Of a DNA stretch of 64,000 nt, positions 2,449 through 24,030 are shown piece by piece. The position numbers and the translations under genes were made by a program. The notes beneath the pieces were generated by a model that ran no database searches, was not told the DNA's origin, and worked only from the letters and a program-made list of their open reading frames with translations. Position 1 is the stretch's first letter. Every line of letters starts with the position of its first letter. The stretch comes from Octopus vulgaris (taxonomy: Eukaryota): assembly GCA_951406725.2 (NCBI GenBank), contig OX597830.1, positions 33,914,001 to 33,978,000 on the forward strand, read 5' to 3'.

Positions 2449-2894
2449 GAAATTTACAAGTTTTTTTCTTTCTCTGTATATTTTCTCTTATTCCTTTCAG
2501 TTGAAGAGCATAGGCTCAAAACCTAAAAGACTTTTTTATTTTCCCAAATGTCAAACTAAAACACTTGTTGTTCATACACCTGTCCTCATCTTTTACTTTT
2601 CTATAAATTTCAACTATATATACACACACACACACACACACACATATATGATATGTAAAAGTAAGATGCATGGATCAAGGTGTAGGAAGTGAGTAAGCTT
2701 CAAGCAGTGCATAGGAGTTATAAAAAACAACTTTCAAGAAGAGTAGTGATTTATTGACATAGAAGGTTTTAAAGTTTTCCCATATCGAAGTCTAATAAGC
2801 TGAAAAAAGTTATTTCATGGTTCACAGTTAGCAACTGGAGTTGCTGTATATGTGATTACCTCAATATTAGATTCACCTCAACATTTAAATTTAA

Positions 2895-2946
2895 TTTGCC
2901 AAAATATTTTCGTCACTTTGAGACTACGACCTGTTCACTGACAAAA
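2895..2946 (-). ncRNA. Minimal type I hammerhead-like motif with G3-C8 core variant
   Basis: Minus strand: TTTGTCA-GTGAACA-G-GTCGT-agtctcaaa-GTGAC-GAAA-ATAT-TT-TGGCAAA. Stems I and II and a palindromic stem III all pair; the core is GUGAACA instead of CUGANGA. Confidence 0.55.
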
Positions 2947-2949
2947 TTC

Positions 2950-3342
2950 TCTTTTACTCTTTTAACTTGTTTCAGGCATTTGATTGTGGCCATGCTGGAG
3001 CACTGCCTTCAGTCGAACAAATCGACCCCAGGACTTATTCTTTGTAAGCCTAGTACTTATTCTATCAGTTTCTTTTGCCAAACTGCTAAGTTACCAGAAT
3101 GTAAACACACCAACATTGGTTGTCAGGCAACGGTGGAAGAACAAACACAGACATACAAATATATATATATATATATATACACGATGGGCTTCTTTCAGTT
3201 TCCCTCTGCCAAATCCACTCACAAGGCTTTAGTTAGCCTGAAGCTATAGTAGAAGACACTTACCCAAGGTGCCACTCAGTGGGAATGAACCCAGAACCGT
3301 GTGGTTGGGAAACAAACTTCTTATCACACAGCCACTCCTGCA
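2950..3342 (-). mobile_element. tRNA-derived SINE, family A (full length)
   Basis: Reverse complement of the copy at 3801-4179: A/B-box head, internal (TA)n, (TAAAAGA)n-like tail. Confidence 0.9.
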
Positions 3343-3343
3343 C

Positions 3344-3382
<39 letters not shown>

Positions 3383-8139: not shown

Positions 8140-9140
8140 CATATATGTGTGTGTTTGTGTGTATAAGTGTAATTAAAAGAATCTATATTATTCCCATTAA
8201 TTGATTATTAACAACATCCCAGAAATAGTCTGTCCAAAACATTTCTTTCCTCAAAGACCTATATTTCCCTTGGTAGACAATGTAAACAACAGAATGTGAG
8301 AAAAATTGTTAAGTACAACAGAAAGAAATCTGTGTAGGTGTTTGTGTTTATGCATATAAAGTTTGTATGTGGATATGTGTGTACATCTGTGTATGAGTGT
8401 GTGCACATACATTTTTGGGTTTTTTTTAGCTTGTTTTATCCATCAAGTCCACTGGCATGCCAAAACCCATACATCTGTAAATGTATTATATATCTACACA
8501 CTCACTTACATTCACACACACACACACACACACACACAGAGGTAGAGATAGTGGTGTCGATATGTGTAGGTGTTTACCTATCTGTCACTCTCTATATATC
8601 TGTGTGCGTGTGTGTGTGTATGAATACGTGTATATGTTGTATAAGTCTTAGTCATCATCCGATGTATATATTTTCCTATGCTTTCATGGGGTCTTAGACT
8701 GATCCTCTCCAGTATTATTGTCCTGTTGCTATTTCTGTTCTTTTGTCATTACCTTCGTGAGGCTCAGTATTTTCTAATAAACATGATGGCTGAGAAATTA
8801 ACCTTGATGGACTTCCACACTAAACTGCTGATTAAAATCATATTTTCTTCTTACTGATAGCATCTCTTTTGATAACTTGTATGGTGCTTGCAAGTTATTC
8901 ATGCATTCCTAGTTTTCTTAGCACCAGCAAGACTACAAATTGTGATTCCTACCATAGGCCTTCTCCTGGTCATTGGACTGTAAGTTTAGTGGCTTCCTTT
9001 TAGCTAAAACATTCTCTAGTTATTGTTGTATTTAGGAATGGTCATTTTGCCAGTTTAGCCAATAAAAACACACGCACTATATATCTGGTGTTAATTTGCT
9101 TCAGCCTTATTTATTTTTTACATTAATCTTAATCTTATTT

Positions 9141-9190
9141 CGGCCAGAGTTCTTTCGTCACACTTCTGTGACCTCATCAGTGGTCCTTTA
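9141..9190 (-). ncRNA. Minimal hammerhead-like motif (Penelope-type), partly degenerate
   Basis: Minus strand: ggacca-CTGATGA-G-GTCACA-gaag-TGTGAC-GAAA-gaac-TC-tggccg. Perfect 6-bp stem II, imperfect stem I. Confidence 0.55.
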
Positions 9191-11644
9191 CTTTCTTCTT
9201 TCTTATTTGAGTGTCTCTCTCACAAGAAAGAGAGTATTAGTGGTACCTTGTCCAGGTAGAAACACAAGCAGTATCTCATTTAATCTAATTCTCTTCCAAA
9301 TCATTTGTGTTATAATTTTTTTCTGTTACTTTGATAATCTGGACCATCAGATTGATATTTCTTTCTGTAGTGTGTCCTTTGCCATCATATCAATTGATGA
9401 TAATACCACTATCCGTCATTGTGTATGACACATGTCCTTTACTACATCATTAGCTCTATGAGTGACAAGCATATATTCTACTTCACTGGATAATTTGAAT
9501 ATTTCAATGACGATTCCTGATTAATCTCCTTGCCTTTTTATTCTTGATTACACATTGAACATGTACCTGTCAACTTTTATATCTGGTCCCTTTGTTGGGC
9601 TTATTGAGACCAGTCTTTCCCTCTCCCATTAATTCTTCTCCTCTGTCCTGGCTTTCCAACTACTTGGTTCCAAGTTCAGTCTTATGGTGTAGTACGTTGA
9701 GAGGTCCAAAAAGAGAGAAAAGAATGATTTCTAGTAAAGATTCATCATATTCATAAAAAACAAGCAAGAGCAAGTAATAAGAATATGAAAATAGTAGTTG
9801 AAAAATATCGTTATAGGTATAAACAACTAATAAGGGTGAGAAAATTGGAATCTAATTTAATAGTACATCCATTTAACACCAAGTGGCTTAGTGCATAAAA
9901 AACCAGGAATACAATAAATTTTATACATAAATATAAGAGAGTAACCACTATGTGGTCGACTCTAGCACTAAAAATAGAAAAATGGAGGAGAAAAAGATGT
10001 TGAATCAAAATTAGATTTAATCTCTTACTTTCACGTTTTTATAATATGTTACAAGTACCTGGTTTTTAGCCTCTCTCCTGGTTCTCTTATATAGTTCCTT
10101 GTTCCTCACTTTATTTCAATCTTCCAAGGCCTGTCGTTTTACATTTATCAACAGTACCTCTCCACTGCTATATGATCTTCCATCATCTTAGTTTTGGACT
10201 TGCTCCATCTACACATTCAGTCTGTAACGTGCAACATGTTTTCGTAAAAGACTTTTAATTATTCTCTATGTTTTAAGTCTCTAGCTCTTCTTTCTTCTTC
10301 CTTCTCGTTATATTTCAAACTTGTATTTCTTTTTAACATCTAGCTTATGATTTTACATTTGGCATACTTCTTAGATTGTGTTGTATTTCAGAATACATCT
10401 CTCTCTTATCTTGTGGCCACTAATCACTTGTCTTGTTTTAAGTGATAGATTCTTCACTGGAAAAGGACTTAATATTCAAAACATATATTTATATCTTTTC
10501 CTGCTAGGTACAAATCCTATGTGACTTGTATGTTCACCTGAGAGGTAGAAGATCAAGTGGTTGGCCATTCTCTTGTAGTTAGTCATTGAAAAAAGGCTAT
10601 TATATTCCCTCACAGACTTCAAAATCATTGACCTTTCTTATTTCCATGTACCATGATACCCATGTATATCAGTGTAACTAGCATGGTGCGTGCCCAATAT
10701 TTCCCTTAAAGTTACCTGCCATCTTAAAGTTGCAGTCTTTCATCATCAAAGTAATCTGCTAGAGCAATGCATAGAACTGACTCTTTTGCTCATCTACCAG
10801 TCTTTATTGTGATGCATATACAGAAGTTACTGTATTTGCCATGTTACCCCCTGACCTGTCTGAGTTTAATTATTCTATCATATAATCTGATTACCTATAT
10901 TATTTTATCAAGCCGTTTTGCCAACTCCATTTACCTGAGAGCTTTTAACAAGTGAAAAATATTTTTCATCTACGTTTTTCCTGTAAGGAATCCAGTTGAA
11001 GCTCTCTTTCATATTAACTCTTGTTTATGATACTTGCATCCCTTTTCACACCTCTAGAATTTCTCCAGACATTAATGCTGACAGTCTTATAGTTTTATGC
11101 CTGACAGGAAGGGCTAAGATTCCAATAATGAGGTGGAATCCCCCCCCTCTCTCCCTCTCTCAAATCATAATATTATGATAGCTTGTCTGTCAAATTTGAC
11201 GAAAACTTAGCAATGACAGAATAAAAAAGATCTCATTCATGGGTTCTGTTGTACCTGATAAGGCATATTCTAGCCAAGACGTATTTGCCACTGATCATAC
11301 ACTAATGTCCATTTACCCTAGGCTTGACAGAGGAGGATTTTCAAGCCTCTGCTATACAGATTTTTGAAGAAACAAACCACTCCGGAACCTCTGGTGATAT
11401 CTTCCATACAGTTATTAAGATACATCTTTGAATCTTTTACAAGGTACAATGAACCCTCTGTTTGCAGGCTAAGAATAAAGGGTTGCATTTGGTACTCTAG
11501 GGGCAAACATTCTGAGAACATGTTCAGCTCAGATCAACTTGGTGGACTTGAGCTCAGAAAAGTGGATAAAGTAGATACATTGGCACATCACCTGAGAACC
11601 GTTTTATTAGAAATCCTATTTTGGCACAAGGCCAGCAATTTTGC

Positions 11645-15272: not shown

Positions 15273-15564
15273 GGGCATATGGCATAGTGGTTAAGAGCAC
15301 GGGCTACTAACCCGAACATTCTGAGTTTGATTCCAAGCAGTAACCTGAACAACAACAACAACAATAATAATAGTAGTAATAACATTAAAAAATACCTTAG
15401 GAATGAGAACCCAGGTTCACAATTTCCCCAAGACACCTGATGAAGGCTGGAGGGTATATCAGCTGAAATGTTGTGTTAACAACAAACAAGATGAGGACAA
15501 ATATCATCAAATGTAAATAATATAAATAATGTACATAATTCCTCATCTCTTAAATATAGAATTG
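15273..15564 (+). mobile_element. tRNA-headed SINE-like element carrying a minimal hammerhead motif
   Basis: A-box TGGCATAGTGG (15280-15290), anticodon-like stem-loop CGGG-ctactaa-CCCG (15300-15314), B-box-like GAGTTTGATTCC (15323-15334), (AAC/AAT)n linker, then the HHR at 15432-15477. Confidence 0.7.
15432..15477 (+). ncRNA. Minimal type I hammerhead ribozyme motif
   Basis: GACAC-CTGATGA-A-GGCTGG-agggtata-TCAGCT-GAAA-TG-TT-GTGTT: stem I GACAC/GTGTT, stem II with G.U pairs, stem III AATGTT (AACGTT before CpG decay). Confidence 0.65.
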
Positions 15565-18695: not shown

Positions 18696-18902
18696 AGTTA
18701 ATCCAAGCAAGAAAACACCAAAAAAAAAAACACAACAACGCTAGGACATGGAACAAATATAGTATTATTGGACGCTCAGGAAAGAAGGAAAGAAGGAGGG
18801 TTTAACGTTTCGAGCGGAGCTCTTCGTCAGAAACATAGGAGAAGGAAAGATCCAGAGAAGGGAAGACAGAGGAAAAAAAATCGCCAACGGTACACACGAG
18901 GT

Positions 18903-23729: not shown

Positions 23730-24030
23730 ACTTTGGTTTACTGTTTGCAGGAATGTATACTGGGATGTACTTGCATAGCAAGTGACCTGATCTGAGATCA
23801 CGTGCTAGAATGAAAACAATTGCAGTGTGGAAGATGTTTATAAGCCATTTAAGAAACACACAAAAACCGTTAGATTCACTTCAACATTTAAATTTAATTT
23901 GCCAAAATATTTTCGTCGCTTTGAGACCGCAACCTGTTCACCGACAAAATTCCATGCTGCACAGGATTTTGTCAGGGAACAGGTTGTGGTCTCAAAGTAA
24001 TGAAAATATTTTGGCAAATTAAATTTAAAG
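23730..24030. mobile_element. Penelope-type short repeat ending in a head-to-head inverted duplication of the G3-C8 hammerhead-like motif
   Basis: 23870-23950 matches 2868-2947; 23887-23950 is an inverted repeat of 23966-24029. Confidence 0.65.

Follow-up and report, generated by a model that had tools for sequence, protein, structure and literature searches.

Hammerhead motifs with a swapped G3-C8 core in the pseudo-LTR of an octopus Penelope-like retroelement

In hammerhead ribozymes, the base pair between core positions 3 and 8 positions the general acid. The closest described relatives of the motif treated here are the minimal type I hammerheads of Penelope-like elements (PLEs). According to the passages of Cervera and de la Peña (2014, PMC4209133) drawn on here, these share with the octopus motif the type I order, an extra nucleotide between A9 and G10.1, the G10.1-C11.1 closure, a tiny palindromic stem III and the location in a pseudo-LTR (pLTR), and their elements likewise form many solo copies and opposite-strand pairs. 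A further close case is PAc, the Poseidon element of Anolis carolinensis (Frangieh et al. 2024, PMC11167929). In the sections of that article used here, its ORF begins in the pLTR near the hammerhead, as in octopus, its insertions have two 3' ends inside the ORF start (the tail), and uncut RNA apparently is the main template.

An inversion of the 3-8 pair has been described as an engineered change. In a PLE hammerhead, cleavage is recovered in part by the double mutant C3G/G8C (PMC11167929, results passages), which a full pairwise scan found to be the one double mutant able to rescue in that core region (PMC9901934, as excerpted here). An earlier note on the present DNA had likewise mentioned partial rescue in vitro. 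In the part of PMC3884650 that concerns it, G3-C8 is noted as more active with G17 than with C17, the data not being shown there.

The motif and its copies in the window

The window analysed here comprises 64,000 nucleotides of the genome of Octopus vulgaris (contig OX597830.1, positions 33,914,001 to 33,978,000). The earlier note had described, on its minus strand, a repeat that follows the hammerhead order with the core pair inverted to G3-C8, and direct reading of the letters confirmed this for both copies, at 2895-2946 and 23898-23949. The first, decayed copy is a minimal type I hammerhead motif (2895-2945, minus strand) composed, in the order of that strand, of the stem I 5' strand (2945-2939), the core heptamer (2938-2932, with G3 at 2938, C8 at 2933 and A9 at 2932), an extra G after A9 (2931), stem II (2930-2926 and 2916-2912), G12-A14 (2911-2909), a palindromic hexamer from 15.1 to 16.1 that represents stem III (2908-2903), U17 (2902) and the stem I 3' strand (2901-2895), so that the predicted cut lies between 2902 and 2901. 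The order of parts is identical in the second copy (23948-23898, minus strand; G3 at 23941, C8 at 23936, U17 at 23905). The palindrome that had been assigned to stem III is present, but its 8-nt extent includes A14 and U17, and the formal stem III measures 6 nt. The stem II difference between the two copies is not covariation but one-sided CpG decay to G-U pairs.

Throughout the family, U4, G5, A6 and A9 are canonical, G12, A13 and A14 as well as the A15.1-U16.1 pair are those expected of a hammerhead, and U17 occurs in 105 of 106 pLTR arms, while the literal core C3 U4 G5 A6 N7 G8 A9 is not found. By homology, the motif is a hammerhead variant that departs from the literal core at C3 and G8 and whose activity is putative. 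Folding predictions differ among copies: the first is predicted to misfold in its context, with a stem II pair probability of at most 0.08; the second, taken in isolation, is predicted to adopt the hammerhead fold with G10.1-C11.1 in place; and young copies are predicted to do so with probabilities near 1 for stems I and II. For a dimer duplex via the palindromic stem III, the predicted energy is a marginal -0.2 kcal/mol, and a wobble pair between G3 and U17 is predicted.

A G3-C8 descriptor (at least 7 in stem I and at least 5 in stem II) matched twice in the window and in none of 100 dinucleotide shuffles; even at the loosest setting the shuffles averaged 0.06 matches. A genome-wide pattern count shows a multicopy family. 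In the 2.8 Gb counted, a 16-mer pattern made up of stem I and the G3-C8 core has 9,085 exact matches (3 for the reversed control), compared with 283 for its G3-G8 form (control 7) and 29 for its C3-G8 form (control 7). Among the 12 of these 29 matches that were read, none aligns to the family over the motif and no C3-G8 revertant inside the family was found. The expectation that searches based on CUGANGA would miss the repeat was also borne out, since the literal core is absent and the Rfam covariance models gave no hammerhead at E ≤ 10 within 2700-3100. Over the whole window, the 150 Rfam matches inspected of 257 listed were only microsatellite-driven miRNA matches. With about 9,000 copies that carry a natural, fixed G3-C8, CUGANGA descriptors and Rfam models thus overlook whole families. 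Canonical CUGANGA minimal hammerhead-like motifs also lie at 15432-15477 (plus strand) and 18800-18834 (minus strand), probably as pLTRs of other PLE families.

Both copies sit in remnants of a larger repeat. Around the first, a truncated solo pLTR of a PLE remains as an 83-bp remnant (2867-2949, minus strand), which is 93% identical to the second copy over these 83 bp and corresponds to the pLTR found at ORF-bearing loci. It adjoins a SINE-like repeat (2946-3380) that is very common, with more than 12 matches in the window, and that apparently truncates the 5' side of this first copy. The second copy lies in a near-complete solo pLTR of the long, tailed arm type (23758-23961, minus strand), 85% identical over 204 bp to the young pLTR of an ORF-bearing locus (L238). 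It contains the first codons of the element ORF (23848-23758, with the ATG at 23848), and the alternative 3' ends of insertions fall near 23817 and 23760. Next to it, an inverted truncated arm (23964-24029, plus strand), overlooked in the earlier note, carries a third motif damaged by U4G and forms with the second copy a 143-bp inverted repeat of 87% identity. The locus as a whole has a predicted fold of -83.5 to -89 kcal/mol, and inverted pairs such as 23887-24029 would form long double-stranded RNA that hides the motif.

The parent element

The repeat is the pseudo-LTR of a recently active Penelope-like retroelement, as follows from its sense position 3' of the ORF together with its run-on into the ORF start. 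This Penelope-like nature, unrecognised in the earlier note, explains why there are so many copies and why inverted pairs occur. As a Penelope-like retrotransposon the element is unremarkable, and what remains of it at 2895-2946 is a decayed copy.

Copies were sampled blind to the core. A 22-mer that lies beyond the motif has 6,310 matches, and the first 100 of these, all on one contig, supplied 86 loci. The repeat unit measures about 150 or 210 bp, and the 132 arms of the 86 loci have two alternative 3' ends, separated by about 60 nt. Long and short arms are combined in 35 of 41 inverted pairs, and many arms adjoin (TA)n. Most genomic copies are short pLTR insertions, often in inverted pairs of a long and a short arm; a tail and inverted arms of this kind are described for PLEs in the portions of PMC8557442 and PMC11167929 considered here.

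One sampled locus (L164) leads upstream into a GIY-YIG frame, and searches seeded with this frame retrieved frames with a reverse transcriptase (RT), a Cys linker and GIY-YIG. The latter scores above the Pfam cut-off (PF01541, E 3.4e-5); RVT_1 is weak and below its cut-off (E 0.014), the RT motifs being visible nonetheless. Of 20 older loci, 14 have a sense-strand pLTR behind the ORF; among 20 young ones the number is 19, all with G3-C8. The distance from the stop codon is mostly about 1 kb. At two loci (L237 and L238) the pLTR continues into the ORF, and the ATG is part of the repeat; such a run-on is seen in L240 as well. The motif is on the sense strand of the pLTR, with the ATG 57 nt after the predicted cut. 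An uninterrupted frame of about 1,000 codons that lacks a start is present in one locus (L216); none of the copies examined can be read through from the ATG to a stop codon. A branch-point and acceptor-like sequence lies immediately 5' of stem I, and no spliced junction of a 5'-UTR intron was present among the RNA-read junctions listed. Family DNA is present in sequencing runs under five organism codes.

Non-LTR retrozymes are tandem non-coding units, each with a hammerhead; the octopus copies derive from a coding element and lie mostly scattered, as solo or inverted pLTRs. A tandem run of about seven pLTR units, retrozyme-like, occurs in one locus (L249:130-1473) and could allow dimeric hammerheads. 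A search with the GIY-YIG family yielded mainly other PLE families, to whose ORFs the motif is unlinked (30 loci, 15 extended regions). In two cases (L059 and L073) the motif's proximity to other GIY-YIG ORFs was set aside as chance neighbourhood, and a sequence common to the upstream regions of L008 and L023 proved to be another common repeat and not the element body. A third related pLTR family with canonical core and similar stem II was seen in L257 and at about 750-880 of L059. In addition, a U3-A8 hammerhead family (L038, L040, L041, L044, L049, L055, L062, L063 and L070) lies behind a PLE family that is very young and has a 781-codon frame.

A likeness to the hammerhead that arose by chance within a repeat, for example in the terminal inverted repeat of a MITE, would agree with the occurrence of copies in inverted pairs and with the missing Rfam match. 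These pairs are asymmetric, however, with the long and short arms of PLEs, a parent element with RT and GIY-YIG was found, and relatives carry canonical hammerheads at the same place (see below). Given the linkage to the PLE ORF and the comparison with the sister family, both of which refute it, such an origin is next to inconceivable.

Origin and constraint of the 3-8 pair

The claim that G3-C8 is fixed in a multicopy family was upheld by the core-blind sample, in which 74 of 88 core-spanning arms have G3-C8 and none of the 88 has C3-G8. Old, diverged copies carry the swapped pair, as do all 19 young ones. A sister Penelope family is represented within the window itself, where a stretch of its element (9021-9219, minus strand) holds a hammerhead (9142-9186, minus strand) of the same architecture with a C3-G8 core and A9 kept. 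This family, with 55% amino acid identity and at least 3,738 copies by pattern search, was read in 30 copies (L268-L297). Its hammerhead lies at the same place, has the same extra G and the same stem II closure, and shows C3-G8 in 30 of 30 copies; A9 is changed to C in 27 of them.

Of 13 metagenome relatives, one (L303) is ambiguous, and in six the flank is too short or no motif follows the ORF. The descriptor found C3-G8 in L301 and L304 and U3-A8 in L298, and inspection by eye found C3-G8 in L299, L302 and L305. In L298, C9 occurs together with U3-A8. Downstream of the ORF, a U15.1-A16.1 swap in L299 and U4G in L302 were seen by eye. A quick protein tree, which omits or does not label L309 and others for which no long open frame or no flank is available, joins the family to its sister (SH-aLRT 97) inside carriers of C3-G8. 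Hence, with a C3-G8 sister and C3-G8 carriers around the family in this tree, G3-C8 is the derived state. Judged from these comparisons, the swap is a derived compensatory double change that was kept through old and young subfamilies. The compensatory character proposed in the earlier note is thereby borne out, with C3-G8 throughout the sister copies read and C3-G8 or U3-A8 in the outgroup elements. Positions 3 and 8 are complementary in each case, as G-C in the family, C-G in its sister and U-A in L298, and would form a Watson-Crick pair.

The pair is not without exception. Four ORF-bearing insertions (L206, L207, L208 and L210, contig C16) have G3-G8 and form one sub-clade with support 88/94. 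Since this sub-lineage made separate insertions, spread does not strictly depend on the 3-8 pair. On the same contig, many relatives of the sub-lineage are clustered.

Between subfamilies, common variants affect 1 of 33 structured non-CpG positions as opposed to 14 of 60 free positions (Fisher p = 0.016), and the sole structured variant preserves its pair. Loop II varies between subfamilies, while stems and core are kept. The constraint could in part reflect needs of a promoter, a splice acceptor or protein binding. Stem covariation across copies, which the earlier note had named as a check, did not emerge: no compensatory stem change was found among individual copies, as is expected for dead insertions, and only 34 of 83 motif-spanning arms retain intact core and stems. 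Selection on master elements would keep the hammerhead fold and the 3-8 pair, and thousands of solo copies, both window copies included, would decay neutrally. Overall, the interpretation in the earlier note is supported in part: the repeat is a hammerhead homologue at the usual Penelope pLTR place, but its stems do not covary among copies.

Cleavage and comparison with described elements

Insertion 5' ends give a view of the templates. Of the 132 arms, 91 extend 5' beyond the core. A start at most 2 nt away from the predicted cut is seen in 2 arms, where 2.1 are expected. As the 5' ends ignore the cut site, the templates appear to be mostly uncut. By analogy with PAc, the element protein would prime cDNA within the first ORF codons, at two sites, and the cDNA would extend to the RNA 5' end, about 20 nt before stem I, mostly on uncut RNA. 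Priming in the first codons and copying up to the RNA 5' end would leave short solo arms. Reads from two raw RNA runs, which carry another species label and stem from fragmented libraries that are uninformative on cleavage, cover the pLTR about equally on both strands and the ORF thinly, which is interpreted as read-through; no pile-up of read starts or ends over the pLTR occurs in these two runs.

The insertion 5' ends, the G3-G8 sub-lineage and the A9C change of the sister family together suggest that cleavage is weak or dispensable, and the motif is predicted to cut only weakly. The A9C change (27/30) and the U4G in L302 further suggest, at the level of sequence, a loose core constraint in the clade. 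Our preferred explanation, which we hold to be rather probable, is a pLTR hammerhead with a compensatory G3-C8 that likely still cuts, though slowly and only if it dimerises or is assisted by the element protein.

A fast constitutive ribozyme, in contrast, would efficiently process element transcripts into unit RNAs or circles. Stems I and II, which models predict to be stable in young copies, and the tandem units of L249, from which dimers could arise, would suit such an enzyme, but most cDNA templates are uncut, and minimal PLE hammerheads cut poorly in vitro in the assays described in the consulted part of PMC4209133. The weak stem III, U17 and a swapped pair that is only partly active in the experiments of PMC11167929 used here speak against it as well, and efficient processing is therefore very unlikely.

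More weight is due to the possibility that a descendant of the hammerhead no longer usefully cuts, its fold or sequence being kept for another job such as protein binding, a promoter, a splice acceptor or a translation start, and that the swap is a tolerated passenger that rode a successful master copy. Arm 5' ends that ignore the predicted cut site, the existence of the G3-G8 sub-lineage, the prevalence of A9C in the sister family, as well as the acceptor-like sequence and ATG that flank the motif, all fit this idea, as does the finding, in the relevant passage of PMC11167929, that PAc insertion in vitro is unaffected by core mutants. Yet exactly two paired positions have changed and are still complementary, with the other nine conserved core letters canonical; the chance of a complementary paired change is about 1/55 x 1/3 by a hand estimate made post hoc. 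Moreover, subfamilies differ in loop II but share stems and core, and U3-A8 in relatives adds a third paired state. We consider this loss of useful cutting a real possibility, albeit the less likely one.

Returning to the slowly cutting hammerhead, a more specific version of it can be envisaged. The preference of G3-C8 for G17 over C17 in the cited part of PMC3884650 suggests that G3 disfavours C17. A Watson-Crick trap between G3 and C17 may thus have made U17 a permissive background for a natural active G3-C8 hammerhead, kept by selection over repeated cycles of the retroelement lineage as a slow, protein-gated ribozyme with a shifted rule for the cleavage site. We put this forward tentatively and regard it as somewhat doubtful. 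If true, one PLE clade would show three natural 3-8 states, namely G3-C8, C3-G8 and U3-A8. In any case, the genome offers a natural series in close elements, from C3-G8 with A9 and C3-G8 with C9 to G3-C8 and G3-G8, which bears on whether Penelope hammerheads need to cut at all.

No natural G3-C8 was found in the literature searched, which reports only engineered G3-C8 and natural U3-A8; as its coverage is incomplete, an earlier report may exist. The passages of PMC3088659, PMC7151607, PMC10085705, PMC12192606 and PMC13725137 that were retrieved likewise contain no natural G3-C8. Within the known PLE families, the octopus element is akin to the EN+ clades Nematis or Neptune (Craig et al. 2021, PMC8557442, in the portions used here) in its C-terminal GIY-YIG with CCHH and its CX2-5CxxC linker, as well as in insertion beside (TA)n, inverted 5'-truncated arms and a tail. 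In a by-eye comparison, the rows for Nematis in Fig. S2 of that paper are similar to the linker, which makes this clade a candidate. Unlike the octopus family, all 34 hammerhead rows in the consulted File S2 have C3-G8, and U17 occurs in 10 of the 34.

The element also differs from PAc, which, as given in the sections of PMC11167929 referred to above, has C3-G8 and belongs to a different PLE clade, and in which G3-C8 occurs only where it was engineered, with partial rescue. In octopus, 57 nt separate the cut from the ATG, which in PAc is located inside stem II, and the octopus tail measures about 60 nt as opposed to 30-40. Compared with the Schistosoma examples in the excerpts of PMC4209133, the octopus motif has a longer stem I, of 7 bp, and a shorter stem II, of 5 bp, and these excerpts report only C3-G8 and natural U3-A8, in contrast to the octopus G3-C8. 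The natural U3-A8 variants (Perreault et al. 2011, PMC3088659, and PMC4209133, each in the part consulted) are a further close case, as they too represent natural covariation of positions 3 and 8. U3-A8 arises by two transitions, and position 8 is still a purine, whereas G3-C8 takes two transversions and places a pyrimidine at the position of the general acid.
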